64,000 nucleotides of DNA from Streptococcus mitis. GTDB taxonomy: Bacteria > Bacillota > Bacilli > Lactobacillales > Streptococcaceae. Position numbers and translations under genes: made by a program. Positions 11,802 through 46,660 of this stretch are shown piece by piece. Where the stretch lies: contig MKYF01000001.1 of the NCBI GenBank assembly GCA_001914195.1, positions 46,595 through 110,594 on the forward strand, written 5' to 3'. The stretch's first letter is position 1. The number at the start of each line of letters is the position of its first letter. The notes below the pieces were generated by a model that searched no databases, had not been told where the DNA came from, and saw only the letters and a program-made list of their open reading frames with translations.

Positions 11802-11828
11802 GAAGAAAAATCGAGCAAGGAAAAAGAA

Positions 11829-12220: not shown

Positions 12221-12230
12221 TAGAGACTTA

Positions 12231-12333: not shown

Positions 12334-12379
12334 TACTTCATTTTCTCCTGAAATTGAGTTTTTGCCCAGCTCCTTTTGA

Positions 12380-21909: not shown

Positions 21910-24504
21910 ATGAAATTCAATCCAAATCAAAGATATACTCGTTGGTCTATTCGCCGTCTTAGTGTCGGTGTTGCCTCAGTTGTTGTAACCAGTGGTTTCT
22001 TTGTCCTAGTTGGTCAACCAAGTTCTGTACGTGCCGATGTGGTCAATCCGACCCCTGCTCAAGTTGTGCCAGATGCTACTTCGGTGAGTGAAAAGAGCGA
22101 CTTACCAGCAGAACTTCTCAAGAAAGCAGTCGATACAGCTCTTCCTTCAGAACAAGTAGACTCAACACCTAAAGCAAGCTTGGATACTACAAACTCTCCA
22201 GAAAAAGCAGCTACGGGTGCTAAAGACCAAGTGGTAGCGCCAAAAGAAGAAGTGCAAGCAAAACCAGAATCTAAGAAAGAAACAGAGGATGCGGTTAAAC
22301 CTGCGACAAATCCTGCGCCTACAGTTTCTGGACAAGACCGTGAAGCAAATGAAGCGCAACCAGCAACCACTCCAGCTGAAGTGCAAAAAGGTGTGGCCGA
22401 CAACACTAAAGACACAGTAGATGTCCCAGCTACATACTTGGATAAAGCCAACTTCCCAGGTCCATTCACAGCTGGCGTCAACCAAGTTATTCCATATGAA
22501 TTCTTCGCCGGTGACGGTATGTTGACTCGCCTTATCTTGAAAGCTTCTGACAAGGCTCCATGGTCAGACAACGGCTCAGCTAAAAATCCAGCTCTTCCAC
22601 CAGTAGAAAAATTGGGCAAAGGTCTCTACTTCTACGAAGTGGACTTGGCCGGCACCCAAGGTAAATCAGATAAAGAGCTTCTTGACCTCTTGAAACAAAA
22701 TGGCACTCAAAGTTATAAAGCTACCATCAAAGTTTACGGTGCGAAAGACGGCAAGGTAGACTTGAGCAACCTCGTAGCGACTAAGGATTTGGATGTCAAT
22801 TTGAATGGCTTAACCACTCCAGCTGAAGTGCAAAAAGGCGTGGCTGACAATACCAAAGACACAGTGGATGTTCTGGCTAGCTACCTTGATAAAGCCAACT
22901 TCCCAGGCCCATTCACAGCAGGTGTCAACCAAGTCATTCCGTATGAATTCTTCGCTGGAGATGGTATGTTGACTCGTCTGATTTTGAAAGCCTCAGACAA
23001 GGCTCCATGGTCAGACAATGGTTCAGCTAAAAATCCCGCCCTTCCACCAGTGGAAAAATTGGGCAAAGGCCTCTACTTCTACGAAGTAGACTTGGCCGGC
23101 ACTCAAGGAAAATCAGATAAAGAGCTTCTAGACCTTTTGAAACAAAATGGCACTCAAAGTTACAAGGCAACTATCAAGGTGTACGGTGCCAAAGATGGCA
23201 AGGCTGATTTGAGCAATCTCGTAGCGACTAAGGATTTGGATGTCAATTTGAATGGCTTGACTACTCCAGCTGAAGTGCAAAAAGGCGTAGCCGACAATAC
23301 TAAAGACACAGTGGATGTTTCAGCTACATACTTGGATAAAGCCAACTTCCCAGGTCCATTCACAGCCGGTGTCAACCAAGTCATCCCATATGAATTCTTC
23401 GCTGGTGACGGTATGTTGACTCGCCTTATCTTGAAAGCTTCTGACAAGGCTCCATGGTCAGATAACGGTTCGGCTAAAAATCCTGCTCTTCCACCAGTAG
23501 AGAAATTGGGCAAAGGCCTCTACTTCTATGAAGTGGACTTGGCAGGTACCCAAGGTAAATCTGATAAAGAGCTTCTAGACCTCTTGAAACAAAACGGCAC
23601 TCAAAGCTACAAGGCAACTATCAAGGTGTACGGTGCCAAAGATGGCAAGGCCGATTTGAGCAATCTCGTAGCGACTAAAAATTTGGATGTCAATTTGAAT
23701 GGCTTGACCACTCCAGCTGAAGTACAAAAAGGCGTAGCTGACAACACCAAAGATACAGTAGACGTCCCAGCTACTTACTTGGATAAAGCCAACTTCCCAG
23801 GTCCATTCACAGCCGGTGTCAACCAAGTCATTCCTTACGAATTCTTCGCCGGTGATGGTATGTTAACTCGCCTTATCTTGAAGGCCTCAGACAAGGCACC
23901 ATGGTCAGACAACGGTTCAGCCAAAAATCCAGCTCTCCCACCAGTAGAGAAATTGGGCAAAGGTCTCTACTTCTACGAAGTAGATTTGGCAGGTACTCAA
24001 GGAAAATCTGATAAAGAGTTACTTGACCTCTTAAAACAAAACGGCACTCAAAGCTATAAAGCTACTATCAAAGTGTACGGTGCTAAAGACGGCAAGGCCG
24101 ATTTGAGCAATCTCGTAGCGACAAAAGAATTGACAGTGAACTTGAATGGGTATAAGTCCCTCAATGAGATGAAATCTAAAATGCCGGCTGCTAGTCAGGA
24201 TAAGATGATGCCTAACAAAGAGCAGGACAAAACTATGAATACTAGCCAGCCAATGGCAACTCCAAGTATGAAGCAAGACCAAGTCGCAGCAACCTCAAGT
24301 AAAATGCCTGATGAAGGTAAGATGGCATCTACTAACAAGATGTCAAGTCCAATGATGGCTGATCAAATGAAAGATCAAAAAGACATGCTTCCATATACTG
24401 GTGAAGCCCAAACTTCAATGGCTACTATTGGTTTCTTTGGATTAGCCTTGGCCGGTCTGCTAGGTGGGCTCGGTTTGAAAGCTAAAAAAGATGAAAATGA
24501 CTAG
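21910..24504 (+). CDS. LPXTG cell-wall-anchored surface protein with YSIRK-type signal peptide and four SSURE-like ~149-aa tandem repeats
   Basis: 864 aa. The signal is ...RWSIRRLSVGVASV... (a YSIRK-G/S variant). There are four repeats (TTPAEVQKGVADNTKDTVDV...). The C-terminal sorting signal is LPYTGE plus a hydrophobic stretch plus KAKKDEND. It sits next to TCS08 and rpsD, as for the pneumococcal SSURE protein (fibronectin/plasminogen-binding, SP_0082-like). Confidence 0.8.
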   Translation: MKFNPNQRYTRWSIRRLSVGVASVVVTSGFFVLVGQPSSVRADVVNPTPAQVVPDATSVSEKSDLPAELLKKAVDTALPSEQVDSTPKASLDTTNSPEKAATGAKDQVVAPKEEVQAKPESKKETEDAVKPATNPAPTVSGQDREANEAQPATTPAEVQKGVADNTKDTVDVPATYLDKANFPGPFTAGVNQVIPYEFFAGDGMLTRLILKASDKAPWSDNGSAKNPALPPVEKLGKGLYFYEVDLAGTQGKSDKELLDLLKQNGTQSYKATIKVYGAKDGKVDLSNLVATKDLDVNLNGLTTPAEVQKGVADNTKDTVDVLASYLDKANFPGPFTAGVNQVIPYEFFAGDGMLTRLILKASDKAPWSDNGSAKNPALPPVEKLGKGLYFYEVDLAGTQGKSDKELLDLLKQNGTQSYKATIKVYGAKDGKADLSNLVATKDLDVNLNGLTTPAEVQKGVADNTKDTVDVSATYLDKANFPGPFTAGVNQVIPYEFFAGDGMLTRLILKASDKAPWSDNGSAKNPALPPVEKLGKGLYFYEVDLAGTQGKSDKELLDLLKQNGTQSYKATIKVYGAKDGKADLSNLVATKNLDVNLNGLTTPAEVQKGVADNTKDTVDVPATYLDKANFPGPFTAGVNQVIPYEFFAGDGMLTRLILKASDKAPWSDNGSAKNPALPPVEKLGKGLYFYEVDLAGTQGKSDKELLDLLKQNGTQSYKATIKVYGAKDGKADLSNLVATKELTVNLNGYKSLNEMKSKMPAASQDKMMPNKEQDKTMNTSQPMATPSMKQDQVAATSSKMPDEGKMASTNKMSSPMMADQMKDQKDMLPYTGEAQTSMATIGFFGLALAGLLGGLGLKAKKDEND
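22364..24151 (+). repeat. Four near-identical tandem repeats of 447 bp inside the SSURE surface-protein gene
   Basis: The repeat starts (actccagctgaagtgcaaaaagg) are at about 22364, 22811, 23258 and 23705. The antisense ORFs repeated at the same period confirm the periodicity. Confidence 0.85.
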
Positions 24505-25324: not shown

Positions 25325-26424
25325 TGAAATTAAAAAGTTATATTTTAGTGGGGTATATCATTTCAACACTCCTAACGATTATCGTGGTTTTTTGGGCCAT
25401 CCAGCGCATGTTAATTGAAGAAAGAGAGGTTTATTTCCTAGTGGGGATGACTCTCATGGCTAGTTTTATCGGTGCTGGGATTAGTCTCTTTCTCCTTTCG
25501 CCAGTCTTTACTTCATTGAGCAAACTTAAGGAACATGCCAAGCGGGTAGCAGACAAGGATTTTCCATCAAATCTGGAGGTTCAAGGACCTGTAGAATTTC
25601 AGCAATTAGGCCAAGCCTTCAATGAAATGTCCCATGATTTGCAGGCGACCTTTGATTCACTAGAAGAAAGCGAACGAGAAAAGGGCTTGATGATTGCCCA
25701 GTTGTCGCATGATATCAAGACCCCCATTACTTTGATCCAAGCGACGGTAGAAGGAATTTTGGATGGGGTTATCAAGGAAGGAGAACAGGACCATTATCTA
25801 GCAACCATTGGACGACAGACAGAAAGACTCAATAAATTGGTTGAGGAATTGAATTTTTTGACCCTAAATACAACTAGAAAACAGGTGGAAACTACCAGCA
25901 AAGACAGTATTTTTCTGGATCAGCTCTTGATTGAGTGCATGAGTGAATTTCAGTTCTTGATTGAGCAGGAGGAACGAGACGTCCACTTGCAGGTGATCCC
26001 AGAGTCTGCCCGGATTGAGGGAGATTATGCCAAACTTTCTCGCATCTTGGTGAATCTGGTCAATAACGCTTTTAAATACTCGGCTCCAGGAACCAAGCTG
26101 GAAGTGGTGGCTAAGCTGGAGAAGAACCAGCTTTCAATCAGTGTGATCGATGAGGGGCAGGGAATTGCCCCAGAGGACTTGGAGAATATTTTCAAACGCC
26201 TTTATCGTGTCGAAACTTCGCGTAACATGAAAACAGGTGGTCATGGCTTAGGACTTGCGATTGCGCGTGAATTGGCCCATCAATTGGGTGGGGAAATTAC
26301 AGTCAGCAGCCAGTACGGTCTAGGAAGCACCTTTACCCTCCTTCTCAATCTCTCTGGTCGTGAAAATAAAGCTTACCCCCCCTTTACAAATCCAGCTATT
26401 CATGGTAAAATGGATTTTGTGTGA
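25324..26424 (+). CDS. Sensor histidine kinase (HAMP, HisKA, HATPase_c), partner of the preceding regulator
   Basis: 366 aa. It has an N-terminal TM, the H-box LSHDIKTP, the N-box LVNNAFKYS, and G-boxes DEGQGI and GGHGLGL. Confidence 0.85.
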   Translation: MKLKSYILVGYIISTLLTIIVVFWAIQRMLIEEREVYFLVGMTLMASFIGAGISLFLLSPVFTSLSKLKEHAKRVADKDFPSNLEVQGPVEFQQLGQAFNEMSHDLQATFDSLEESEREKGLMIAQLSHDIKTPITLIQATVEGILDGVIKEGEQDHYLATIGRQTERLNKLVEELNFLTLNTTRKQVETTSKDSIFLDQLLIECMSEFQFLIEQEERDVHLQVIPESARIEGDYAKLSRILVNLVNNAFKYSAPGTKLEVVAKLEKNQLSISVIDEGQGIAPEDLENIFKRLYRVETSRNMKTGGHGLGLAIARELAHQLGGEITVSSQYGLGSTFTLLLNLSGRENKAYPPFTNPAIHGKMDFV

Positions 26425-26570
26425 AATATCAGCAGGAAAGCATGAAGCTCGTCAACAGGTGTCTTATGATAAGTAACCTTGGCTGTTTAGGCGAAGGGCA
26501 TCTGCACGAATCAGGGCTTTCTAAGTGACTATTTCCACCGAAATATTATTTATATCAGGAGGACATACAC

Positions 26571-27182
26571 ATGTCACGTTATACAGGACCATCTTGGAAA
26601 CAAGCTCGTCGCCTTGGCCTTTCACTTACAGGTACAGGTAAAGAATTGGCACGTCGTAACTACGTACCAGGACAACACGGACCAAACAACCGTTCTAAAT
26701 TGTCAGAATACGGTTTGCAATTGGCTGAAAAACAAAAACTTCGTTTCACTTACGGTGTAGGTGAAAAACAATTCCGTAACTTGTTCGTACAAGCTACAAA
26801 AATCAAAGGCGGAATCCTAGGTTTCAACTTCATGCTTCTTTTGGAACGTCGTTTGGATAACGTTGTTTACCGTCTTGGTCTTGCGACTACTCGTCGTCAA
26901 GCTCGTCAATTCGTAAACCACGGTCACATCCTTGTTGACGGAAAACGCGTTGATATCCCATCATACCGCGTAACTCCAGGTCAAGTGATCTCAGTTCGTG
27001 AAAAATCATTGAAAGTTCCAGCTATCCTTGAAGCAGTAGAAGCTACTCTTGGACGTCCAGCATTCGTATCATTCGACGCTGAAAAATTGGAAGGTTCATT
27101 GACTCGCTTGCCAGAACGCGACGAAATCAACCCAGAAATCAACGAAGCCCTTGTCGTTGAATTCTACAACAAAATGCTTTAA
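26571..27182 (+). CDS. rpsD: 30S ribosomal protein S4
   Basis: 203 aa. [31 protein letters not shown]... is canonical uS4. Confidence 0.95.
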
Positions 27183-27202
27183 TTTTAAGATATATCTTAC
27201 AG

Positions 27203-27230
27203 AAAGCCTACAACAGTGGGCTTTTTTCTT
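27203..27230 (+). terminator. Terminator after rpsD
   Basis: aaagcc-tacaacagtg-ggcttt followed by a T-run. Confidence 0.5.
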
Positions 27231-27277
27231 TGTCTTAAAAGGTTGATTTCTGGGTTTGTCATCATTTTTGTCATCAC

Positions 27278-27790
27278 TTATAACGAACTAACAGCTTTCT
27301 CATAAAATGAGACGGCTGTTTTTGCTTTTTCTTTGGAGAGATGACTGTAAGTGTCCATAGTCATAGCCAGTGTAGAATGACCTAGACGGTGTTGTAATTC
27401 TTTATATGGTATTCCAGAGTTTAGCAAGAGACTAGTGTGTGTCTAAAACCGTGGAATCCAATATTAGGTACACCAGCATGTTTGAAACCGAGTTTTTAGA
27501 CGTGTACTCAAGGTTTTGTTACTTGGGTAATTATGGATAAAGTCAGAGAATACAACTATTTCAGTTCGCCCTAACTTCCAAGCCTCTTGAATTTATCTAA
27601 GCTGGTGGGCTTTCAACATGGCAACAGTCGCTTGATCTATATCGATATCACGATAGCTTGCTTTTGATTTTGGGCTATTGATTTGCTCTAGGTGGTTTAG
27701 TGTCTTTGTAATGCTAATGGTTGCATTCTCTAGGTCAATATCGGACCAGCTAAGGGCTAGAGCTTCATTGATACGATAATCGATTTCTAT
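27278..27790 (-). pseudogene. Degraded tyrosine-recombinase (phage-type integrase) remnant
   Basis: The reverse-strand translation gives integrase catalytic-domain segments (EIDYRINEALALSWSDIDLENATISITKTLNH ... GIPYKELQHRLGHSTLAMTMDTYSHLSKEKAKTAVSFYEKAVSSL*). These are interrupted by stops and frame changes, so there is no intact ORF. Two 10-bp direct repeats, tttgtcatca (27255-27278), sit just downstream of its stop. Confidence 0.6.
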
Positions 27791-27997
27791 ATACCAAAAA
27801 TACCTATCGAGTAACTATAAAGTCAGCGCGAATCAAATACTTTCTCTTCTTTCTTGTGGCAAGTTGAATTAATAAAATAATTATGATATTCTTATTTCTA
27901 TAAGGAAAAAATTAAAATGATTATAAGATAGTTTATTTAGAAAATTATCCAAATTTTATTTCTAATTAATTTAGAAATCATTAACAAGGGGGATATT

Positions 27998-29722
27998 ATG
28001 GCTGAAAGAATAATACATCAAGCTGATCTTCATGAGATCGAGAACAACTTGCGCTCTATCCATGAAGGATTACAAACAATTAATGCTAGAGTTGATGTAG
28101 CAAACGAAAATCTTGAAATCGTGTACGATGAAATCGGTAGTTTAGCACAAGAATTTCATGAATTTGTGAATATCCAACAAAAAGCTAATAGACTAGGACG
28201 AGCTGAAACTCGACTGGTAAAAATCCGTCAAGAAATTGAGAAGAAATACGGACATTATGATATTGTTCGTCGTACTACCACAGGGATTTTACAAGCTGAT
28301 GATTTAGGAATTGTCAAAAAAGAAACAATCAGCACTGCTACAGAAGAACTAATGATATCAACTCCAGGTTACTGGCTTGCTCCATGCTTGGTTGCATTAG
28401 CGGCATGGATAAATGATCAACCCGAGTTAGCTGAAAAAGCAGTCAAGGAAGGGATTAAACGAAACGATGAAAAGACCTCCCTTTTCTTTGCCTTAATTTG
28501 TAGAAGAGCTAACAGAAAGAACGCATGCCTTAAGTGGACTCAACGTTATCTAGCTAATCAAGATGAAGAAAATCTTGACAGAAATTCTATTATTATCTTA
28601 GATGCTTTTGCGAGTGGACTCTTGGGAGCTGATACCGAAGGAGTCATCTCACGTCAAATGAATGAATGGCTCAGTCGACTTGAAGAAAAACCTGGTTTTA
28701 CTGAACGGCAAACAGAACAATGGTCCGAAGCCATTAACTTAAAAAGAAGTGAACTAGATGAAGATTTATACCCTAACCTAAGAAAATATAGTAATAGTTG
28801 GCCTGTCCTAGAGGATATTTTAGAAGGTGCTCATCTTCATGAACAAATGTTAAACTATTTAACTGATATTTTTGAGAGGAAAGGGTCTACAGAAAGCGTC
28901 AAAGAACAATTAGATGATATTCTAGACACACTTGTGACTGATTTTGATAACGAGGAATTAGCTCTTCGAAAACAAGAAAAATTCGAGCAGTTTGTGGTTG
29001 ACTTCGGAGGAGATGACAATCGTGCTCATCAAAACATGAGTATTGAAGTGACTGCGTTTGAAACCCATAAAGATTTCACCCAGTTGCTTACCGATGCAGC
29101 AATGAAACCCGAATCTTCTCACTCAAGTATATCTACCCAAAAATTTGCACTGGCTCTTTCTCGTGATTGGGTAACAAACGCTTATAATGATGTTACTGCA
29201 AAAAATCGTATGAAGATTCCTTACGAAATTGAAATTAATGTAGATACTTTTAACGATAAATCAATAGATGGCCAAAACGAAAGCGAGTTGGTTGAAAAAT
29301 TTAATTCTCAGATTGACTCTGAAAAAGAACAAACTTTGGCAAACTACTTCCCAAGTTTATTTGATAAATTCCTTTTGTATGGTGGTATAGCTATCGGAGT
29401 AATCGGTTTAATGATGATGATTTCTGGCAATGTTTTCTTAGGTTTAATAGCTATTATAGCAGGTATTTTTATGGTTCTTAAGCATAAATCTAATATTGAA
29501 AATATTGAAACAAGTCGCAAGAAAATTGAAGAACAGTACGAGGATAAGAGAGTTAATGGTGAACAAATTATAAGAGCTATTCTGGCTGAAATTGTAGACT
29601 TTAGAATTGAATTTGCAGAGAAAGATGCTGAAAGTACTAAAGTCCTTGATTTCCTCGAACAAATAAGACCTGAACAATATGTAAACAAGTTGGCATCATC
29701 CAATAGAAAGATTAAAATTTGA
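27998..29722 (+). CDS. Hypothetical 574-aa protein: N-terminal coiled-coil/helical-repeat region, C-terminal TM hairpin plus ~80-aa tail (first gene of candidate novel AAA+ system)
   Basis: It has a strong RBS (aaggggg-N6-ATG). Two adjacent hydrophobic helices lie near aa 455-495 (LLYGGIAIGVIGLMMMISGNVFLGLIAIIAGIFMVL). No recognisable catalytic motif was found. It is AT-rich. Confidence 0.55.
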   Translation: MAERIIHQADLHEIENNLRSIHEGLQTINARVDVANENLEIVYDEIGSLAQEFHEFVNIQQKANRLGRAETRLVKIRQEIEKKYGHYDIVRRTTTGILQADDLGIVKKETISTATEELMISTPGYWLAPCLVALAAWINDQPELAEKAVKEGIKRNDEKTSLFFALICRRANRKNACLKWTQRYLANQDEENLDRNSIIILDAFASGLLGADTEGVISRQMNEWLSRLEEKPGFTERQTEQWSEAINLKRSELDEDLYPNLRKYSNSWPVLEDILEGAHLHEQMLNYLTDIFERKGSTESVKEQLDDILDTLVTDFDNEELALRKQEKFEQFVVDFGGDDNRAHQNMSIEVTAFETHKDFTQLLTDAAMKPESSHSSISTQKFALALSRDWVTNAYNDVTAKNRMKIPYEIEINVDTFNDKSIDGQNESELVEKFNSQIDSEKEQTLANYFPSLFDKFLLYGGIAIGVIGLMMMISGNVFLGLIAIIAGIFMVLKHKSNIENIETSRKKIEEQYEDKRVNGEQIIRAILAEIVDFRIEFAEKDAESTKVLDFLEQIRPEQYVNKLASSNRKIKI

Positions 29723-29735
29723 GGAGGTAATTGAC

Positions 29736-29918
29736 ATGGATGAACAATATAAAGGCGATAGTAAGCTATCATCTAATAACACCACTCCATTTAAGAGCAT
29801 TAATACTGAAGAGGATTTTAGTGAAGAACCTATGAGCGTGTTTGCTGAGGGACTCCCTTCATGGGACATCGTGCCTCCACAATTGCTAGTCAGAAGGAAA
29901 CGGCAAAATAATGAATAA
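29736..29918 (+). CDS. Small acidic hypothetical protein (60 aa), second gene of cluster
   Basis: It has a strong RBS (gaggaggt, 8 nt upstream). Its stop overlaps the next start by 8 nt, which suggests translational coupling. Confidence 0.45.
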   Translation: MDEQYKGDSKLSSNNTTPFKSINTEEDFSEEPMSVFAEGLPSWDIVPPQLLVRRKRQNNE

Positions 29919-30375
29919 ACCACAAACATATGCAGAATGGGTAAATGTCTTAACTATTTTTAAAAACAAAGATGATGATGAAACAGTTTTAAAAATGATG
30001 AAATCTGGGACTATCGAATGGCAATACGGTGTGGCGGAACGTTTCTCTACAAAGTTAATTGACGCTGTTAATTACCGTATGAATGTAGCTTCAGATAAGT
30101 TTCAAAAAGATTTACTAAAATCCCAAGGATACGAGGGAGCTATCATTCAATCAATTCTTTCGTTGAGAAAAGAAATGGCGTTCTTAGCTGAAGCAATCAA
30201 TCTTCCTGCAATTCCAGATAAAGAGCGACAACACTACTTAAATCTCGTTATAGAACAAGCTAATAGTATGCAGAAATCTTTAGAAGAATCTGCAAAACAG
30301 GACCGAAGCGGGAAAATGTCAAGTATTATTAGAAATCATAAAATTAATTCTTTTTTAAATAAAGGTGAACAGTAA
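29911..30375 (+). CDS. Hypothetical 154-aa helical protein, third gene of cluster
   Basis: Its start overlaps the upstream gene, and the next gene starts 1 nt after its stop. No known domain was recognised. Confidence 0.5.
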   Translation: MNKPQTYAEWVNVLTIFKNKDDDETVLKMMKSGTIEWQYGVAERFSTKLIDAVNYRMNVASDKFQKDLLKSQGYEGAIIQSILSLRKEMAFLAEAINLPAIPDKERQHYLNLVIEQANSMQKSLEESAKQDRSGKMSSIIRNHKINSFLNKGEQ

Positions 30376-31953
30376 ATGAGCGATATAGTAAAAAGCAAAG
30401 AACTTCTTACAAGATATTCACTTGCAAGAATCCCTTTTATTGCTATCAATACCATTGAGCCAAGTAGAACATTAGATATGTTAAAGGCAATATCTGAAGA
30501 ATTACAACTTCCATTCAATGTACATACTCTCACCAAAGGTGTGTATGATCTTAGTTCTGGTAAGAATGTTAACGAAGATAAATCTGTTTATGGTGCAATA
30601 GATTACATGACGGACCAAATGCAAAAGAAACAATACCAAACTATCGTATTGACAGAGGTTCCGGATCTTAGTAATGAAAATAGCGATTCTAAACAAGTCT
30701 TAGCACTGGTCAATTTAGCCAATGAAACTGGAGGCGTTGTAATCGTTTTTACCAATACCTCTATTTGGAATCAACTTCAACGGCAAGGTATGACAGTAAA
30801 AATTGATTTACCTAACGAAGAGGAAATGTATTCGATAATTCAAGAATACATTGACGACTATCGAAATGATATCCAGATTGAATGGGACAACTCCGATATT
30901 CGAGAAGCTGCTGCAGCTCTCAATGGGGTAACTAGAATCGAGGCGGAGAACGTTATCGCTGCTTTGATTGCAAATAAGTGCATAAGAAAATCTGATTTAG
31001 ATGAGATAAGATTTGCAAAAGATCGCCTATTCTCTGATATCTCTGGTCTAGAAAAAATCGTTGTAGATGATTCTGTAAAGGATATCGGAGGGCTTGAAGG
31101 ATTAAGGAAGTGGCTTAATGAAAAGAAAGAACTGCTAACTCCCGAAAAGAAAGATATGTTACGTGAGAAAGGTTTGCAACCACCTAGAGGAATACTCCTA
31201 GTAGGTGTCCCTGGATGCGGAAAATCTTTATCTGCTAAATCAATTTCCGCTAACTGGAAACTTCCATTATATCGTTTAGATTTTGCAACGGTTCAAGGAA
31301 GTTATGTAGGTCAGTCTGAACAGCAACTCAAAGATGCTCTAACTACCGCTGAGAATGTATCTCCGTGTATTTTATGGATTGATGAAATAGAAAAAGGGCT
31401 ATCAGGAGCTACTGGTGGCGCTAATGATGGCGGTGTATCTACTCGTATGGTTGGTCAATTCTTATTCTGGATGCAAGAATGCAAAAAACAAGTTTTTGTA
31501 GTTGCAACAGCTAATGATGTGTCTATGCTTCCGTCAGAACTTCTCCGTAGAGGAAGATTTGATGAGTTATTCTTTGTTGATTTACCAACTGCAGATGAGC
31601 GCAAAGAAATACTTGCTTTGTATTTTAAAAAATACTTAAGTCTAGAATTTGAAGGAGATTTTGCTGATAATATCATTCAAATAAGTGATGGTTTCACCGG
31701 AGCGGACTTAGAATCGACAGTTAGAGATTTAGCTTACCGATCTATCGCTAATAGCAATTTTATTCTCAATGAAGAGAATATCATGACTGCTTTCAATAAC
31801 GTAGTCCCACTCTCTCAAACTAGCCCAGAAAAAATTGAGGCTATTAGAGATTGGGGGAAAGAAAGAGCTGTTCCTGCATCTGGAAAACCAATCGGTGGAG
31901 AGGGACTTGTTCATAAACAGAGTGGACCTAAAACAAGAAAAGTACTTGTTTAA
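30376..31953 (+). CDS. Two-domain classical-clade AAA+ ATPase (degenerate N-terminal AAA-like domain plus active C-terminal AAA domain)
   Basis: 525 aa. Walker A is GVPGCGKS, Walker B is ILWIDEIE, and the second region of homology is [19 protein letters not shown] (the arginine fingers RRGR). All are typical of FtsH/Cdc48/Vps4-type AAA. The N-terminal ~250 aa lack a P-loop. Confidence 0.8.
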
Positions 31954-31965
31954 TCAGTTCATTAT

Positions 31966-32005
31966 TTGGACACGGTAACTGTAATCTCAGTTTCGTGTCC
32001 ATTTT
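31966..32005 (+). terminator. Putative terminator after AAA+ gene
   Basis: The stem ggacacg ... cgtgtcc is followed by atttttat. The loop is rather long (19 nt). Confidence 0.4.
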
Positions 32006-32100
32006 TATAATTCACTAAAGGAAGATCTTTTTTGAGAGTATTATTAAAAGGAATCTTAAATTGCAAAATATAACTTATAACACAATTAGGAGAAAAATAG

Positions 32101-32583
32101 ATGCCTAAACCAATATTAAATTCATATCAATCCCAAAAACAAACACAAGCAAGCCATATCATGACTTCTAACTTAAAACAACCACAGATAGATAAGTTGA
32201 GTCTAGATAGGCTTCTAAGAAAATCACGGTCTAAAGAATATATGGATGCTATTCATCAGCTAGATGCAGGTGGACATGTTCATAATAAAAAAGAAGTAAA
32301 TGAAATTATTAATACAATTAAGTCGGAATTCCCAGATGTGGATATTAATGGAATTCTCCTAGGTTTTGTAGCAAAATGTTATTTAGGAGCACCTTACGAA
32401 GCGCACACCCTAGACTTGGTTGGAGAAATCATTGAGCATTATAAACGAGGAGAGCCATTACCTGGTGGACTCGATAAAGTCAAAAGCATTGCTTTACATG
32501 GAGGATATGATTTTATCGAAGTTTATACAGATTGTTGTCGAGCAATTAGCTCAAATGGTTCCGTATCAGTTATAAAAGATTAA
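32101..32583 (+). CDS. Hypothetical 160-aa protein (possible Cys/His hydrolase)
   Basis: It has its own RBS (aggag). It has a conserved-looking Cys (VAKCYLGAPYE) and His (IALHGGYDFIEVY) that could form a papain-like dyad. This is uncertain. Confidence 0.45.
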   Translation: MPKPILNSYQSQKQTQASHIMTSNLKQPQIDKLSLDRLLRKSRSKEYMDAIHQLDAGGHVHNKKEVNEIINTIKSEFPDVDINGILLGFVAKCYLGAPYEAHTLDLVGEIIEHYKRGEPLPGGLDKVKSIALHGGYDFIEVYTDCCRAISSNGSVSVIKD

Positions 32584-32792
32584 TTGTTCTTTACATTGAT
32601 ACAAGGGGAGATACAAGAGATAGTTCTTGCTTTTATATATGTAAGTGCTGAATACTAAGTATAATATAAGCTAGATGCCTCTGATACTTGTTGTTCAAAA
32701 GAGCTTTTTTATTTGGTTATTTATTTAATATAGTACAACAGTTTATTTTTTAGGAGGAAATACTTATGTCTCAAGTTTCAGATAATCAAATG

Positions 32793-33037
32793 ATGTTTAA
32801 GGTTTTAGGATCTGCTGTAAAAAATGCCAGACATTGGAAGACAATGTTCGTCAGGCTTGCCAATAGGAAGGTTTAGAGATCACGGTTGAACACGAAAGTG
32901 ATTTTGTAAAGATTTCTAGTCATGGTGTGATGTCTACACCTGCATTAGTTCTTAATGAAGATGTTGTATCTTCTGGGAAAGTATTGAAAGTTCAAGATGT
33001 GAAGAAAATCATTAGGGAAGTATCATATGTTGATTAA
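32793..33037 (+). pseudogene. Thioredoxin-fold 'redox-active disulfide protein 2'-like gene, inactivated by a 1-nt deletion and an in-frame TAG
   Basis: The N-terminal MMFKVLGS is in one frame. The rest (CKKCQTLEDNVRQACQ*EGLEITVEHESDFVKISSHGVMSTPALVLNEDVVSSGKVLKV...) is in the -1 frame, with a TAG replacing a residue. The CxxC and VMSTPALV motifs are diagnostic. Confidence 0.6.
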
Positions 33038-33119
33038 TTTAATGGTATTGAATAATAGGGGAGATTTTTATGAAAATTAACCACTCCCCCATTATAAAAT
33101 AACTAAAATAGGAGGATAT

Positions 33120-33527
33120 ATGAATCAAGTAACCATTTATCACAATCCAAATTGTGGAACGTCTAGGAATGTCCTAGCTATGATTCGAGCAGTAGGAATT
33201 GAACCACAAATTATCGAATATCTGAAAACACCACCGAAAGAAAAAGAATTATAACAGTTATTAGTGCAGAGGGGTATTAGTGCTAAAGAATTACAACGTA
33301 CCAATGTTCCAGAATTTGAAAAATATTATTTACAAGAAGCTAAATCGGAACACGATATTATAGACGCGATGATGATAGAACCAATTTTGATAAATCGTCT
33401 AATCGTCGTAACGGAAAAAGGAACGCTATTATGTAGACCATCAGAGAGAGTATTAGAAGTTTTACCTAAATCATTGGATAAAGATTTTGTAAAAGAAGAT
33501 GGTGAGATTGTTTGTAGTATCCGATAA
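33120..33527 (+). pseudogene. arsC: Arsenate reductase (glutaredoxin-coupled ArsC, Spx/ArsC family) with an in-frame TAA at codon 45
   Basis: MNQVTIYHNPNCGTSRNVLAMIR... (catalytic Cys in NPNCGTSRN) continues in the same frame after a TAA at 33252-33254 (...PPKEKEL*QLLVQRGISAKELQRTNV...LLCRPSERVLEVL). The full length matches R773-type ArsC. Confidence 0.7.
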
Positions 33528-33687
33528 ATAGAAAAAAGCTCTGCCATCGAAATGATAGCAGGGCTTAACTTCAATATCCAAATGATGTATTTATCTAAAA
33601 AAGTAGTGATTAGAATGATTTACCTTGCAATGTAGTGAAATTTAACAAAAAGAAAAAAACGCTTGAACTCGATTTTTATCATCGTTT

Positions 33688-34266
33688 TCAAATATCAAAA
33701 AAAGTTCTTAAAAATCTATTAACATTTGTATATGGATTTATATCAAAGTTATTTACAATGGAAGCCATATGATCACTATTTGATAGAGCTTGTGCGTATG
33801 ACCTAGAAATAACAGTTATTGTTTTTTCATCTGTTTTTATATATTTTTTAGATAAATGATGTTCTAACTTATCAATTAATTGTTTAGCATCTAAAGCTCT
33901 AGTCACTCTTTCATAATGTAACAATAGCCATAATTCAAAACATTTATTACAAAAAACGAGTTCAGAATTGTTTTCTTCACAAAGACTTTTTAAGGTAGTA
34001 AGTTTTTCAGATGAAGTATTATCTTTATCGATAACTAATACAATTTTGACAGGAGATGTTTCAAAGTTATGCCTTGTATAACACCTTTTTACATAATAAA
34101 ACAAATCCAATCCCTGCTTATTTACTTGCTTAGCAGAATAGCTTATTCCACCTTTAATACCAACAATAGATCTTAGAGCATCAAAATAAATTTTTTCTGT
34201 TTCCCCTTCTGTATAAAGTTTTATTTGAGGTGGATTTTTCCTCTCCTGACTTCTTCTTCTACCCAT
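33688..34266 (-). CDS. RloB-like (AbiLii) protein, TOPRIM-like
   Basis: 192 aa. The N-terminal motif KLYTEGETEKIYF matches the RloB signature (CEGxxTExxYF). It lies immediately downstream of an AAA_21-type ATPase. Confidence 0.7.
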   Translation of the reverse strand: MGRRRSQERKNPPQIKLYTEGETEKIYFDALRSIVGIKGGISYSAKQVNKQGLDLFYYVKRCYTRHNFETSPVKIVLVIDKDNTSSEKLTTLKSLCEENNSELVFCNKCFELWLLLHYERVTRALDAKQLIDKLEHHLSKKYIKTDEKTITVISRSYAQALSNSDHMASIVNNFDINPYTNVNRFLRTFFDI

Positions 34267-34270
34267 AGTA

Positions 34271-35467
34271 TTAATCCCCTTTAATAATTTCCTTTAATTT
34301 CCCAACAAGAATTTCAGGGACAGCACCAAATAAACCTTTATTGTATCTTTTTACATAAGAATAATCTTGTCTATTTACTTCGGATTTAAAATCGTAAACA
34401 GAATATAGTTCTGTTGCTCCATCAGCACTTCTGTCTGTGAAATAAATCTGTTCTTTTTTGAAGCCAGCATCCATTAGCTCTAATTCATGACTCGTTAAAA
34501 TTACTTGGTTCGAATTTTCATCTGAGTTAAATACATCAACAAGTGCTTTTGATAAACCTAGATGAAATGAATCGTCAAATTCATCTATAAAAATAGTACT
34601 ATTATTTAAAGTTAATAATATAGTTGATAACGCAATCATTTTTTTAGTACCATCAGACTCTTGACTAACTGATAAATCGAAAGTTTCTCCATCATGATCT
34701 CTATGTTTAATCTTTGTTTGAAACTCTGTGAAGCCAGCTGTAGATATAAATAGCTGTTTTATCTCATCTGGCATTGTAACATTAGATTGAAATTGAAGAA
34801 CTTCGAAATCTACAATATTGAAATCGGCAGCTTGTAAAAAATTAATTAATTTTTTCTTTCTTTTTTTATCTTTTTGTAACTTATAAAGATGATCGAAAAC
34901 AGGCGGAACCTCTCGAGAGATAAAAATTAAATTATTTCTAAACCAACGAAACACATTTAAGCAGTGATGATCATTAAATGCCTTTCCAGTGATTAAAAAT
35001 AAGCTATCCATTCGTGTTTTGTTCTTTAGCAATTCCAATTCTCTCGGTATAACCTCATAATTTCCTTTAATACGATGGAAATATGTCACAAACTCATTTC
35101 CCTCTTCTATTTCAAGATGCTCCTCAATTATTTCATCAGAGCAATAGGAAACTGAATATTTATATATAGTTTCTTCTATTAAGATTGTTATCTCGAAATT
35201 AATACTATCAGGATTATTAGCGTAAGTTGGAAATGGATTTTTTAGTTTATCATCTTTTAAAACTAAATTTTGAAACGTTCTGAGAGATTTCATTAAATTA
35301 CTTTTCCCTGAAGCATTTGGCCCAAAAATAATAGCACTCTTTAAAATTCTATGACCATTAAAAGATGCAAACTCATTATTTTTGCGAGTTTTCTTAACGG
35401 CTTCCATTGAGAAATATGCTTCATCTTTGTATGAGTAGCAATTATTAAATACAAACTCCAATAGCAT
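34271..35467 (-). CDS. AbiLi-like AAA_21-family ATPase (abortive-infection ATPase partner of RloB)
   Basis: The Walker A is AIIFGPNASGKSNLMKSL. The likely start is ATG at 35467 (MLLEFVF...), with an AAGGAGGT RBS 6 nt upstream. The ORF track extends to 35539 via GTG. The ATPase-then-RloB gene order matches AbiL. Confidence 0.7.
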   Translation of the reverse strand: MLLEFVFNNCYSYKDEAYFSMEAVKKTRKNNEFASFNGHRILKSAIIFGPNASGKSNLMKSLRTFQNLVLKDDKLKNPFPTYANNPDSINFEITILIEETIYKYSVSYCSDEIIEEHLEIEEGNEFVTYFHRIKGNYEVIPRELELLKNKTRMDSLFLITGKAFNDHHCLNVFRWFRNNLIFISREVPPVFDHLYKLQKDKKRKKKLINFLQAADFNIVDFEVLQFQSNVTMPDEIKQLFISTAGFTEFQTKIKHRDHDGETFDLSVSQESDGTKKMIALSTILLTLNNSTIFIDEFDDSFHLGLSKALVDVFNSDENSNQVILTSHELELMDAGFKKEQIYFTDRSADGATELYSVYDFKSEVNRQDYSYVKRYNKGLFGAVPEILVGKLKEIIKGD

Positions 35468-35650
35468 AACTGACCTCCTTGAAAACGAAAATTCGTATTC
35501 TATATTATAGATTATAACATTTTTTTTACATAAGTTCACGAAAATAGTTGTGTAAACGAAAACTATGTCTAAATACTAACATTTTAAAATTATTCTGAAA
35601 AATCATTTTCCCCAATTATCAAGTCAGGTGCCACAAAGTCATACCTCTGA

Positions 35651-36061
35651 TTAAGTGAGTATCTTTAAAGCTGTCTGAGCTAACTCAAACAGCTTTTTTG
35701 GCTTACGTCCCATTTTAGGTACTCTCCCTCTTGTTTTCTCAACAATAGTATACCCGTTTTTCTTGTATTGTGCTAGCCAGTTAAGAAGTATCGTACGACT
35801 TGGGAGACCGTATTCAAGAGAAACTCTATCTTGAGACCAGTTTTCATGTAGGACTTTATCAATCATTTCTTGTTTTAATTCAGGAGAATAGTAACGATTT
35901 TTTTCTTTTTTGACGAACTCTATTCCATAACGATCAATCAATTTAATCATGTACCTAATATTAGAATTATTTATCCCAAATTTATTTGAAAGCTTCTCTA
36001 AGCTATATCCTTGTTTTCTAAGTTCATAGATCTGAACTTTATCATCATAAGTTAATTTCAT
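35651..36061 (-). mobile_element. IS3-family transposase OrfA (HTH) remnant, with no orfB
   Basis: 136 aa. The HTH plus leucine-zipper N-terminal transposase part is typical of IS3/IS150 OrfA. There is no downstream orfB or frameshift window, so the element is truncated. Confidence 0.7.
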
Positions 36062-36219
36062 AATAAAAACACCCCATCGGCTAGATATTTTTGTCTAACT
36101 AATAGGGTGTAAGTCATGAAACGGAATGACCTATTACTTAACTTCTGTAAGGAGTAGACAGAGTTCTATATAACCCCTCAAAACCTTTATTTTAAAGGCT
36201 TTGTAATTTATTGAAGAAA

Positions 36220-36242
36220 AAATGTAGAGACAAATGTAGAGA
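36220..36242. repeat. Paired direct repeat aaatgtagaga-N1-aaatgtagaga just downstream of the integrase stop (candidate attL/arm site of the IME)
   Basis: The same paired 11-mer recurs at 46638-46660, about 10.4 kb away. Confidence 0.5.
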
Positions 36243-36245: not shown

Positions 36246-37511
36246 TTAAGTAGATAGTTCAGCTATTTTATCTAAATAAATATCTACTGCCTCTAATTTC
36301 TTCTTCGGTGCTAACTCGGCGTATGTATCCATAGTTGTGTTGATAGATTTATGTCCCATACGAACTTGTAGTTCTTTCCAGTTTGCCCCAGCATTTAACA
36401 TCATTGAAGCATGAGTATGTCTGAAAATATGGAAACCATAATCAGGTAAACCAAGAGAAGTTAGTCGTTTTTTTAAAGTAGCACGTTCGTTTCTATCGCA
36501 CATATAATTTCCATAAATCGTTGGAAAGATTAACTTGGATTGAGGTAGACCTTGCTTTTTGAAATAGTTATTCATTTCTGTATAGAAATCCCTAAGGTCA
36601 GTGAGAGTAGAGTTTGGAACGGGAACCTGACGATTACCAGAATCGGTTTTTGCGGTTGGTTTACAAATCATACATCCTTTAGTACCAAGTTTCTTATTGG
36701 CGCTTTTCCACATCAATGTTTTATTTACAATAATTTCATTGTTTGTGAAATCCAAGTCATTTATTTCTAATGCTAGAAGTTCATTGATTCGCAATGCAGA
36801 AGCGAGTAAGGAATTGCAGATGGTAATAAATCGTCGATTAGCTCTGTTATTAGGCAGAGTTTTTAAGAATGATAACCATGTTTTTAATTCTTCATCATGC
36901 AAGACCATAGTTCTACGAGAAGCTAATTTAGGCTTTGGAGGGATTTTGATAGTTTTCACTGGGTTTTTAGTTAATCCAAAATGTGTGATGCCAAAATCGA
37001 AAATATCACTAAGTTTGTGAGTGACTGCTCCAAAGTCTTTTGCACTACCTTTTTCAGCACGCTTTTTCCCTGATTCAATCGATGTTCTAGCTTTTTGGGC
37101 GAGATTGTTAACCCATCTTTGAATGTCAGCAGATGTGATTTTTTCAGGAATGTAATCTCCGAATGCAGGGATGATGTAATTATATACGTATCCCTTCACT
37201 CTATTGATTGTATTATGAGAAGTAACCCAAACTTGATAATTATTGAACCATTCTTCTGCAAGTTCAGAAAAAGTGGATAATCGTTTATCTTCTTTCCTCG
37301 TTCCACCTGCTTTTTCAAAATTAACTCTAGCCGTTAGGATTTTACGGTCAAGTTGCCGTAGTGTTTTAGCTGTTATAGACGTTGTTACTTGTTTGCCTGT
37401 TTTTTCATCGATACCTAAGTAAAGGCCTCGTAAAATATAACTAACCTCTCCGTTTGAATTTGTTTTTTTGATAACCTTTTTGTTATTGTAAGTTATAGTT
37501 TCAGATGTCAT
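36246..37511 (-). CDS. int: Tyrosine-type site-specific integrase (phage integrase family)
   Basis: 421 aa. The C-terminal catalytic region ...HIFRHTHASMMLNAGANWKELQVRMGHKSINTTMDTYAEL... has the R..HxxR..Y signature. Confidence 0.9.
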   Translation of the reverse strand: MTSETITYNNKKVIKKTNSNGEVSYILRGLYLGIDEKTGKQVTTSITAKTLRQLDRKILTARVNFEKAGGTRKEDKRLSTFSELAEEWFNNYQVWVTSHNTINRVKGYVYNYIIPAFGDYIPEKITSADIQRWVNNLAQKARTSIESGKKRAEKGSAKDFGAVTHKLSDIFDFGITHFGLTKNPVKTIKIPPKPKLASRRTMVLHDEELKTWLSFLKTLPNNRANRRFITICNSLLASALRINELLALEINDLDFTNNEIIVNKTLMWKSANKKLGTKGCMICKPTAKTDSGNRQVPVPNSTLTDLRDFYTEMNNYFKKQGLPQSKLIFPTIYGNYMCDRNERATLKKRLTSLGLPDYGFHIFRHTHASMMLNAGANWKELQVRMGHKSINTTMDTYAELAPKKKLEAVDIYLDKIAELST

Positions 37512-37857: not shown

Positions 37858-39054
37858 TTATTCCTTTCTTTGAATAGTTGTTTCAAACTGTGTGAAGAAG
37901 CTATTAGCACGATGTATTGGTTGAGGTTCAAAGGGGTTCGTGAAAAAGTTGCTGACATCTTTTTCGTATTCCCGACTCTCATTGTTATAGTGTGTATAAA
38001 AGATATTATCCTTTTCAACCAGTATGGCTGTTTGTATTCGTCGTTCTAGCTGGTCGAAACTGTCAATTCGTTTACTGGTTTGAAAATTATCATACAACTC
38101 CTTTGGTGAGTAGGGGCTAGTTATGAATATTAGTTCAGCGGTTAATGCCTTATCTATATATCTAGAAGGTAAGAAAACATCGAAATTATAAGGGTCTAGA
38201 ATTTTCAAAAGGTCATCATATCGAAAGCTATCTGGTCGCAGTTCGTCAATAATGATAGTTTCCTGGTTTTGATAACTCTGAAAAGGGTCGCGACTTGAGC
38301 CTGTTACAAAATAAGAAGTATTTTTATTTTCTGCATAAGTCTTAGCCAGTCTTGTCTTACCAAGTCCAGACTCACCATAGATATAGACTACTTGCTTTGT
38401 CTTTTGTTCATACTTCATACGATTCAGGAATTCTCTCCCTAATCTTTCTTGCCTTTTTTCAGCAACAGCTTTAAGTCGCGTACTTGCTTTCGCATATTGA
38501 CTTCCCGTTAGCTCAGATTCAATCTCTTCTAGAGTTAATAAACCGTCATAAAGCATATCTAGATATTCTCGTATTAGTTCCCCTTCTTTTTTACTTTGGT
38601 TTCGCTCTACTTGTTTTCGAATATTTTCTAATTTTTTAGCAAAATCAAAGTTACTTATTACTTCCGAAATAGGGTACTGATATTTATTTTGAGCATCTTT
38701 AGTTTGGTGAACAAGATAACTAAAACCATTATTAGGATGCTTGAAGAATTCTAATCGTTCGATTTGAGCATCTTCACGTTTACCATTTCGTTCATTAATT
38801 TCCCAAGCTATGCTATGTGGGCTACGAGCATGTTTGAAATACATCATGAGATGAATATGGGGTTCTACAGTTTCTCCATCTTCATTAACATCTTTATCAT
38901 GTAAAATTCCTGCCCAGAGTAATGGCTCTAATAACTTAACGATTCTATCAATTTCTTTTTTCCAATCAGATAAAATAGCTAGTCGCATTTGTTGTGTATA
39001 CATGATTGCACGCTGTTTAGGGATTTTTTTATTTGTTTTTTTCTCTGAAGACAT
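37858..39054 (-). CDS. rep: Rep_2-family HUH rolling-circle initiator/relaxase fused to a C-terminal P-loop NTPase
   Basis: HDKD...PHIHLMMYF matches the pMV158 RepB-type metal-binding/HUH motifs. The C-terminal Walker A is YGESGLGKT. The likely start is ATG at 39054 (MSSEKK...), with an AAAGGAAA RBS. The ORF track extends to 39087 via GTG. Confidence 0.65.
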   Translation of the reverse strand: MSSEKKTNKKIPKQRAIMYTQQMRLAILSDWKKEIDRIVKLLEPLLWAGILHDKDVNEDGETVEPHIHLMMYFKHARSPHSIAWEINERNGKREDAQIERLEFFKHPNNGFSYLVHQTKDAQNKYQYPISEVISNFDFAKKLENIRKQVERNQSKKEGELIREYLDMLYDGLLTLEEIESELTGSQYAKASTRLKAVAEKRQERLGREFLNRMKYEQKTKQVVYIYGESGLGKTRLAKTYAENKNTSYFVTGSSRDPFQSYQNQETIIIDELRPDSFRYDDLLKILDPYNFDVFLPSRYIDKALTAELIFITSPYSPKELYDNFQTSKRIDSFDQLERRIQTAILVEKDNIFYTHYNNESREYEKDVSNFFTNPFEPQPIHRANSFFTQFETTIQRKE

Positions 39055-39080
39055 TTCAAGAATTTCCTTTCGTTTTGTTT

Positions 39081-39190
39081 TTGGCACATTGGCACAGTTT
39101 GAATGCGAGACAATGCCAAGACCAGTCTCGCAGTATTGTTAGTATTAAGGATATTTAGAGTAAGTAGTATCATTGGCACAGTTTTGTAAT
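39081..39190. promoter_or_regulatory. Origin-like region upstream of rep: three ttggcaca(g) iterons plus a perfect 8-bp-stem hairpin
   Basis: The iterons are at 39081-88, 39089-96 and 39173-80. The hairpin tgcgagac-N13-gtctcgca is at 39104-39132. This resembles the dso (bind and nic loci) of Rep_2 plasmids. Confidence 0.35.
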
Positions 39191-39265: not shown

Positions 39266-39829
39266 TTATTTCAATCTACTATGATTGTAAGAGCCTGTTG
39301 CTTGATACCAACGACCATCACTAGGCGCTATATTGGTAAAGAACAAGTCGGGTTCCATAGTGTGTAATTTTGTTTTAATAGCAGGGAATATTTCTTGTAC
39401 TTTCAAGAAACTTTCATGATTGTTTGGAACTTTCCACCGTAATATAGCCCCATCTTTTGTATAAATCATCGATAAGGTTAACAAAGAACGATTGGCCTTG
39501 TTGACGATTGATTTTTGAGTAGAAATCTGTTTATTTTGAGTATCGAGAATAGAATCGGACTCAAAATGGGCAAATTTTCTCAGTTCGTAGGTTGCTCGTA
39601 ATCCTTTGAGCATGTATTTTATATCACTTTTAAACCAGTGATAAAGGAAAAGAGAGAAAAGTAGGATTGAAAAAATTATCAAAGGATAGAAAAGAAAAAT
39701 AACATTTTGATAATTAATTTCAATGTTCAGATTCTGTTGAATCAAGATAAGTATAAATATAGGAAAACAGCTTACTACAGTTCCTATACATAAGATTTTG
39801 AATAGATTATACTTGTTTATCATAAGCAC
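39266..39829 (-). CDS. Hypothetical membrane protein (two N-terminal TM helices)
   Basis: 187 aa, AT-rich. Its start overlaps the ftsK-like stop. No known domain was recognised. Confidence 0.45.
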   Translation of the reverse strand: MLMINKYNLFKILCIGTVVSCFPIFILILIQQNLNIEINYQNVIFLFYPLIIFSILLFSLFLYHWFKSDIKYMLKGLRATYELRKFAHFESDSILDTQNKQISTQKSIVNKANRSLLTLSMIYTKDGAILRWKVPNNHESFLKVQEIFPAIKTKLHTMEPDLFFTNIAPSDGRWYQATGSYNHSRLK

Positions 39830-41397: not shown

Positions 41398-41480
41398 GAA
41401 ATGCCACGCGTGGCTAAAGGGAGTTAAGGTCAAGTGATTTTATGTCATCAAAAATTAACAAAAATGTAACATAAAAACAC

Positions 41481-41828: not shown

Positions 41829-41917
41829 ATAGTAGGAATATTTTAAATGAGTCTATAAATCGAATGAGGAAGCGCTTGCTTCTTGGTTTTGTTAACGACT
41901 TTTATAAAGGAGACAAT

Positions 41918-46503: not shown

Positions 46504-46637
46504 GAACTTCAATTATTCATTCAAAAGATTTTACTATTTTCATGAATAAACTTGAAGTGAAAGAATAAAAAATGAAGAGCTACTCATCTGTGAAGTAGCT
46601 CTTCTCTTATATCCGTAATCTCTTTTTATTTATCTGA

Positions 46638-46660
46638 AAATGTAGAGAAAAATGTAGAGA
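46638..46660. repeat. Second copy of the paired direct repeat aaatgtagaga-N1-aaatgtagaga (candidate attR of the IME), ~95 bp downstream of rpmG
   Basis: It matches 36220-36242. Confidence 0.5.

Follow-up and report, generated by a model that had tools for sequence, protein, structure and literature searches.

A widespread five-gene module around a tandem AAA+ ATPase in Streptococcus mitis, tentatively read as a membrane-tethered protein-remodelling machine

What do four closely packed genes, the last of which encodes an AAA+ ATPase, do in an AT-rich region of the Streptococcus mitis genome? We address this question for a stretch of 64,000 nucleotides (nt), referred to here as the window (GenBank assembly GCA_001914195.1, contig MKYF01000001.1, positions 46,595 to 110,594 of the forward strand). 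A sequence-only reading of this DNA had singled out the four genes as an operon and a candidate undescribed system in a defence-island context, and had pointed to a protein of 160 amino acids (aa), encoded after a terminator, as a possible associate. The list of open reading frames (ORFs) bears out the four genes and their positions (Table 1); we call them A, B, C and D, and the gene for the 160-aa protein F. The window appears to hold a complete copy of a horizontally mobile A-B-C-D-F module, which we tentatively read, as quite possible rather than probable, as a membrane-tethered AAA+ protein-remodelling machine with a conflict-related role. The weakest step of this reading is the last one, namely that the module most likely handles effectors in conflicts, be it among microbes or with mobile elements, instead of serving in housekeeping.

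Whether these genes belong together was judged from the conservation of their neighbourhood. Species-representative genomes of GTDB were scanned with the N-terminal module of D, which yielded 211 genomes; 80 loci were kept, and 70 of these, all from different species, had enough flanking DNA to be assessable. All five genes are present in 66 of the 70, and A<C<D<F is the order in each of the 71 loci in which those four genes were detected. The loci span the Streptococcus mitis group, Lachnospiraceae, Oscillospiraceae, Acutalibacteraceae, Phascolarctobacterium (Negativicutes), Erysipelotrichaceae, Sporolactobacillus and Bifidobacterium. Outside Streptococcus, the median identity to the window is 82% for D (73-89% over these loci, with 74% in Bifidobacterium) and 61-68% for A, B, C and F. 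On plasmids of Komagataeibacter and Comamonas the genes occur in the order F-A-B-C-D, with an F that is 40% identical to that of the window (E=1e-40), and in Fusobacterium the order is A-B-C-D-F. A scan of metagenomes that started from distant D relatives reached still further: at loci where D is 30-40% identical to these query ATPases, A, the conserved peptide of B (described below) and C lie directly upstream of D and F is often present, in the overall order [F]-A-[A]-B-C-D-[A].

Because this co-occurrence and order extend across phyla and to distant relatives, we regard A, B, C, D and F, the last included, as one functional unit. Sequence comparison thus portrays five genes that are held together across phyla and through changes of gene order, and that are co-evolving. 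The earlier proposal of a four-gene unit stands as regards a conserved multi-gene system and has to be widened to five genes, with the doubtful associate F as the fifth conserved member. A lack of conserved co-occurrence, which had been named beforehand as an argument against a system, is contradicted by the presence of all five genes in nearly every assessable locus. The near-identity of the Streptococcus copies is all that could be cited for the view that unrelated genes became neighbours by chance or through the shared ancestry of close strains; given co-occurrence across at least four phyla, identities that fall to ~20% for A and to the range just given for distant D proteins, and the shift of F from a place after D to one before A, we consider that view highly improbable. 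In one distant metagenomic subgroup (loci L103-L108 and L110) there are three A paralogues, two upstream of B-C-D and one downstream, which suggests that A proteins may work as hetero-oligomers.

The component that is easiest to interpret is D. Its residues ~235-480 are a classical AAA module with all motifs intact: PF00004 matches residues 273-402 (E=3e-29, 102.5 bits against a Pfam cut-off of 21.2 bits), and the Walker A motif (GVPGCGKS, residues 277-284), an intact pore loop (SYVG, residues 309-312), the Walker B motif (ILWIDEIE, residues 331-338) and the arginine-finger motif (RRGRFD, residues 391-396) are all in place. A C-terminal extension bears the conserved motif R.WG..RA.PAS (residues 491-502). 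The P-loop is absent from residues 1-~230, and a profile of this N-terminal module aligned by hhalign with the AAA module of the same family with a probability of 92% (E=5e-7, 162 columns), and stayed in register from the helix behind the P-loop to the end of the lid. This match to the AAA module of its own family, together with the missing P-loop, leads us to read the N-terminal half as a degenerate AAA module. Both halves had been described in these terms in the sequence-only reading, and both descriptions hold. D is accordingly taken for an ATPase of the unfoldase type. Its live module is predicted to be active as a classical AAA ring with a substrate-threading pore loop; its closest solved relatives among PDB sequences are VAT and the D2 ring of p97 (E=2e-60).

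At the level of families, D is matched over its full length by phrog_8638 (E=1e-103, PHROGs), and all family-level NCBIfam profiles (CDC48, PAN, FtsH, IteA and CdvC) score far under their curated cut-offs, so that D lies outside these families. When the N-terminal ~230 residues were searched alone against 1.8 billion cluster representatives, only 169 clusters were retrieved, mostly fragments, with full-length members of ~490-530 aa. The homologues are ~500-aa proteins from Actinoplanes, Clostridia and phages, and one Actinoplanes cluster has the UniRef label 'AAA domain-containing protein ycf46'. With its P-loop-less N-terminal module, a length of ~500 aa and the C-terminal motif, D has the make-up of tandem proteins of one dead and one live AAA module, here called 'Ycf46-like' by that label. 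Lytic phages also encode full-length relatives of D with no A, C or F nearby (Rhizobium phage L338C, 4920-6593; Pseudomonas phage PA_L9, 4920-6644), and in L338C the gene is preceded by a peptidoglycan hydrolase gene and two small genes.

The partner proteins are of another kind. Among the five, only D matched any profile: A, B, C and F have no match in Pfam, NCBIfam, PADLOC v2.0.0 or PHROGs. Family profiles of A, C and F found nothing below E=0.009 among all PDB sequences, where de novo helical bundles came top, and homologues scanned singly in Pfam (51 of A and 53 of F) gave coiled-coil noise only (COG3_N, Snapin and FlaC). The earlier impression that the partners fit no nameable family therefore extends to all of these libraries.

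A is predicted to be all-helical, with a long N-terminal coiled-coil hairpin. It has a single hydrophobic stretch of 45 residues (residues 454-498, nt 29357-29491) with a central SGN turn, which forms two helices in a low-confidence AlphaFold2 (AF2) model and agrees with the C-terminal membrane hairpin that had been proposed for this protein; its C-terminal tail is basic and conserved. The bulk of A is probably cytoplasmic, because the protein lacks a signal peptide and has basic residues after the second half of the hydrophobic stretch. We accordingly picture A as a large helical protein that is predicted to be held in the membrane by one hairpin. The conserved core, at ~85-215, is recognizable in homologues down to ~20% identity by RR..G, D102, E116, YWL, K159, LFFxL, R170, W180 and G207/G210. 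B is acidic, as had been noted (isoelectric point 4.66), and its sole conserved part is a C-terminal peptide, LPxW(D/S)xxPP...RRK, that is kept from Firmicutes to Proteobacteria. The peptide reads SVFAEGLPSWDIVPPQLLVRRKR in the window (residues 34-56, nt 29835-29903), ..AFPEWDLLPATQFVRRR in Proteobacteria and ..KLPSWSLEPPYNFIK at distant metagenomic loci; clostridial B proteins have an extra N-terminal zinc ribbon and a repetitive linker of widely differing length. In essence, B is the conserved peptide on a disordered or variable linker. C is a small basic protein whose gene is always placed directly upstream of D. F starts with a near-invariant MPKPxL tail; a Q-rich, low-complexity linker joins this tail to a small alpha/beta domain, and residues C93, E100, H102, H113, E140, Y142 and R147 are invariant. 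Short basic/hydrophobic C-terminal tails occur on A (..SNRKIKI, nt 29701-29719), B (..VRRKRQNNE, nt 29892-29915) and D (..TRKVLV, nt 31933-31950), and this type of tail is conserved among homologues; docking motifs or lipid binding are possibilities.

The genes are also closely coupled on the DNA, if less uniformly than had been claimed. B and C overlap by 8 nt and the stop codon of C lies directly against the start codon of D (TAAATG), as expected from the tight junctions described before, whereas the gap between A and B is 13 nt rather than 1 nt and contains a strong ribosome-binding site (GAGGAGG) upstream of B. The terminator that had been placed between D and F is present as a terminator-like or attenuator hairpin with a U-tract, which was missed by a consensus terminator scan; in Streptococcus, modulation of F expression may be its only effect. 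Rfam identified no RNA element within 26400-33700, and a promoter scan performed no better on this DNA than on shuffled sequence. The AT-rich character of the region was likewise upheld, with a GC content of 0.34-0.38 across the operon region against 0.41-0.46 in the flanking core genes to the left.

Table 1. Positions of the module and of neighbouring features in the window
Feature	Position	Strand	Remarks
Tyrosine integrase remnant	27278-27427	-	49-aa ORF just past rpsD; sequence judged by eye, no family search
Gene A	27998-29722	+	574 aa (ORF list)
Gene B	29736-29918	+	60 aa (ORF list)
Gene C	29911-30375	+	154 aa (ORF list)
Gene D	30376-31953	+	525 aa, tandem AAA+ ATPase (ORF list)
Terminator-like or attenuator hairpin and U-tract between D and F	31967-32007	+	-19.5 kcal/mol, z=-6.6
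Gene F	32101-32583	+	160 aa (ORF list); fifth conserved member of the module
AbiLi/AbiLii (RloB-type) pair, genuine	33688-35539	-	PADLOC 3.8e-74, 3.3e-18
Insertion sequence (IS) fragment	35651-36061
36-nt repeat, possible attachment-site (att) scar	36207-36242 and 46625-46660
Intact integrase	36246-37511
Rep	37858-39087
FtsK/DUF87-like gene	39820-40929
Degenerate copy of rpsD 26978-27006	41427-41455

We hypothesize that these parts work together as follows. D would form a hexamer, and A would recruit it to the cytoplasmic side of the membrane. C and the B peptide might bind either the dead ring or A and serve there as adaptors or regulators, by analogy with the adaptor-plus-tether-peptide arrangements of other AAA+ unfoldases. 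The live ring of D could then thread a protein client from a disordered end and would thereby activate it, take it apart or export it. The client might be F in the minimal module and, in expanded loci, large acidic toxin-like proteins that accompany a HerA-like ATPase.

These expanded loci are a minority. In ~14 of 65 non-redundant loci, two extra genes lie directly upstream of A, one for a ~300-aa protein that begins with a zinc ribbon and ends in membrane helices and one for a ~890-aa HerA/DUF87-like P-loop ATPase (Pfam 4.7e-8; PADLOC mad8/HerA). Nearly the same loci have, between D and F, a gene for an extremely acidic protein of 400-1400 aa with no signal peptide (expanded content in L030, L036, L042, L044, L046, L050, L052, L054, L055, L084 and L085). 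These large proteins carry repeated [FY][DE]DC motifs and a common coiled-coil core, and have interchangeable C-termini with HExxH or ParB-like signatures; none has a match in Pfam, and their C-terminal modules match nothing in Pfam or PDB. They are followed by small proteins that co-vary with the C-terminus of the large one, an arrangement that resembles polymorphic toxin cassettes. By eye, a common motif is seen at the C-terminus of two of these small proteins, which for this reason may be chaperones rather than immunity proteins.

Swapped C-termini with matching small proteins, together with a HerA-like ATPase and a zinc-ribbon membrane protein next to A, could also be taken as traces of an export pathway for toxin-like effectors, similar to type VII secretion, in which A, with an optional multi-pass protein E, would be the conduit, D would prepare the substrates and the HerA-like ATPase would be the motor. 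We think such a pathway distinctly unlikely, since most loci, that of the window included, do without the extra genes, A has one hairpin only, substrates of the WXG100 or LXG kind were not found, no Pfam or PDB family accounts for the C-terminal modules of the large acidic proteins and the 'immunity-like' small proteins may have the chaperone role just mentioned.

A conflict-related purpose for the remodelling machine is suggested by its mobility, its plasmids and this toxin-like cargo. The module appears to be horizontally mobile, to judge from the high identity of D across taxa, the copies on small plasmids and the stack of decayed integrative elements in which the Streptococcus copy sits. 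In the window, rpsD is followed by the integrase remnant, the operon, ArsC-like fragments, AbiLi/AbiLii, an IS fragment and then the intact integrase, Rep and FtsK-like genes, and we read this region as a stack of integrative elements, with the operon as part of the surviving cargo of a decayed one. Related Streptococcus contigs, one of them with a different left flank, also have the integrase remnant ahead of the operon.

This setting is where an anti-phage role would be sought, as abortive infection or another form of defence: A would sense infection at the membrane and D would unfold or activate either the effector F or a phage protein, so that phage growth stops. The Streptococcus operon does lie, as cargo of a decayed element, beside the AbiL pair; a type I restriction-modification system is near it in the related contig L003; one copy of the module is on a 26-kb plasmid with a toxin-antitoxin pair; its distribution is patchy and points to horizontal transfer; and, among PADLOC profiles, IetA (of Ietas) is the closest to the AAA domain of D. 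The link to AbiL does not hold, however, because AbiL, although present in some sister contigs with the operon, is absent from L003 and L004, both of which retain A-F, and from almost every other taxon. The defence-island context that had been described is correspondingly sound for Streptococcus, where the integrase remnant and AbiL are found, and is not seen elsewhere: among 148 flanking proteins from ~60 loci outside Streptococcus, only a handful match defence profiles. A, B, C and F match nothing in PADLOC, the module contains no recognizable nuclease, NADase, pore-former or protease effector, and A was found in just one of 2.9 million viral contigs. Taken with the setting of the Blautia copy described below, these points make anti-phage defence, in our judgement, rather unlikely.

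The same viral search bears on whether A-F might be phage genes, a candidate origin that we rejected: apart from that single contig, the only sequence labelled as phage that carries A is the GenBank record MK448457.1, 'Streptococcus satellite phage Javan368', which ends with A-F. The last 5.4 kb of the record (8844-14257) corresponds to window 27168-32583 at 93.8% identity, including the 3' end of rpsD and the integrase remnant. Because the end of the record includes the 3' end of rpsD, the operon seems to lie just outside the satellite. The record probably extends beyond the right attachment site (attR) into the neighbouring island, and the 'phage' label for A-F is doubtful.

The flanks outside Streptococcus are dominated by zinc-ribbon membrane proteins and cell-wall enzymes. 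Their commonest Pfam family is a zinc ribbon of membrane proteins (15 of the 148), followed by cell-wall enzymes (GH3, M48, amidase_3, M15, which Pfam describes as D-ala-D-ala dipeptidase, and SH3) and transposases; in addition, VanZ-like genes adjoin the module in two unrelated contexts. Together with the stable fixation of the module in Blautia, this could favour a role in envelope stress or membrane maintenance, in which A would be a membrane-bound scaffold that D assembles or disassembles, as Vps4 does with ESCRT-III or as tandem AAA proteins linked to PspA might do. Proteins with an inactive AAA and an active AAA module have indeed been reported beside PspA or membrane-anchored Snf7 (PMC11237479). 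Partners similar to ESCRT-III or PspA, which the sequence-only reading had suggested, nevertheless receive no support here. Profiles of A, C and F aligned by hhalign with PspA and Vipp1 at a probability of <1%, for a PspA profile of only two sequences and with Snf7 not compared, and no PspA or Vipp1 gene is found within 6-10 kb of the module in ~150 GTDB, metagenome and plasmid loci (~1800 neighbouring ORFs; Snf7 was not searched for). A patchy, plasmid-borne and horizontally transferred module would also be unlike a core envelope function, and we hold this role to be unlikely.

Several findings weigh against the membrane-tethered conflict machine that we favour. The defence-profile matches just counted in the flanks amount to no enrichment. 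The Blautia module sits amid ilvN/ilvC, leuA and a VanZ-like gene, which are housekeeping surroundings, and an identical Blautia A protein is indexed in >11,000 blocks of a public assembly collection; this setting and abundance would suit a function in normal physiology no less than one in conflict. For a gene involved in conflict, D shows an unusual degree of conservation. At the level of folds there is no evidence to draw on, as the AF2 models, built from shallow alignments, were unusable (pLDDT, the predicted local distance difference test, was 43 for A and 48 for F). That F is the client is a guess, because the minimal module of the window comes with neither a HerA-like ATPase nor a toxin-like protein.

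We think it possible, although doubtful, that A-B-C-D-F forms the core of effector machinery of an unrecognized class, docked at the membrane and driven by an AAA+ ATPase. Such machinery would be a new system, directed against phages or used in some other conflict, or else a new route of protein export, and its expanded forms would add a HerA-like motor and polymorphic toxin-like cargo; the four partners would then represent new families that are widespread in gut Firmicutes and occur in no fewer than four phyla. The module is frequent in bacteria of the human mouth and gut and occurs in >200 species-level genomes of several phyla, and for four of its five proteins there is neither a family nor a structure nor a name. 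Knowledge of its role would supply a function for the poorly understood Ycf46-like tandem AAA+ ATPases and would define four new protein families. It would also show whether, in bacteria, an unfoldase of the Cdc48 or Vps4 style acts at the membrane in defence, in the handling of toxins or in the repair of the envelope. Experiments could start directly from the conserved terminal peptides of B and F and from a Walker B mutant of D used as a trap.

Other features of the window concern its surroundings. Mobile elements are stacked at the 3' end of rpsD, which has the look of a hotspot for integration (window 26571-47000). Two adjacent ORFs at 33120-33527 (44 aa and 87 aa) together resemble one gene of the ArsC/Spx family and look like a frameshifted pseudogene, and sister contigs have thioredoxin-like fragments at this position. 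An 864-aa SSURE-repeat protein (21910-24504) has repeats of ~150 aa and a C-terminal tail resembling a membrane anchor, and a 940-aa protein (41864-44686) contains 12-nt (4-aa) tandem repeats at 44300-44587 and two repeats of ~105 nt.

How does the module compare with systems already described? In architecture, D is closest to the Ycf46-like tandem AAA proteins (by UniRef/JGI label, and including those linked to PspA or TM-Snf7), with which it shares two modules, a dead N-terminal AAA and a length of ~500 aa. Ravi et al. 2024 described proteins of an inactive classical AAA and a classical AAA module that adjoin PspA or TM-Snf7 in some bacteria (PMC11237479). D differs from the ATPases of these PspA-linked operons in its fixed partners A, B, C and F.

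With Cdc48, p97 and VAT, D shares two AAA modules per chain, an aromatic pore loop and similarity in the active module (TIGR01243, E=9e-34), but it has no double-psi-barrel N domain, its first AAA module lacks the P-loop and it is only 525 aa long. An assignment to this group was rejected, with TIGR01243 scoring 116.9 bits against a cut-off of 802.65 and the N-terminal half being a P-loop-less AAA rather than an N domain. Vps4/CdvC with ESCRT-III offers a different likeness: a classical-clade AAA, a membrane-associated helical partner, a short C-terminal peptide containing proline and an extension after the lid. The LPxWxxxPP of B is loosely reminiscent of MIM2-type motifs. An identity of D with Vps4/CdvC was also rejected, as no MIT domain was matched in Pfam, residues 1-230 are AAA-like and the CdvC profile reached 77.4 bits against a cut-off of 650.

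Among defence systems, the comparison with PADLOC models proposed in the sequence-only reading was carried out, and the module matched no defence or candidate system of v2.0.0, with only the generic AAA domain of D being hit. The best match is IetA of Ietas (IetA and IetS; E=5e-34, D residues 256-494 only), which has neither the dead N-terminal AAA module nor partners such as A, B, C and F. Ietas itself was rejected for the module: the NCBIfam profile IteA_antiphage scores 89.8 bits against a cut-off of 510, an IetS-like protease is missing and none of A, B, C and F matches a profile.

The likeness to type VII secretion concerns the expanded loci only, which combine a P-loop ATPase of the translocase type, an AAA+ ATPase, membrane proteins and large signal-peptide-less proteins with variable C-termini and cognate small proteins. 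Type VII systems rely on an EssC/EccC motor and an EccA chaperone, whereas the expanded loci have a HerA/DUF87-like ATPase in place of EssC and no WXG100 or LXG proteins. The operon of the window, with no FtsK/SpoIIIE-type EssC/EccC ATPase, no WXG100 or LXG genes and none of the extra genes, was rejected as a type VII system. The module is described nowhere in the literature that we searched (on ycf46, Cdc48-like anti-phage proteins, tandem AAA proteins, and polymorphic toxins and HerA). Its ATPase is of a type known at the level of architecture; both the module as a unit of five genes and the families of its four partners are new to the libraries and literature searched.

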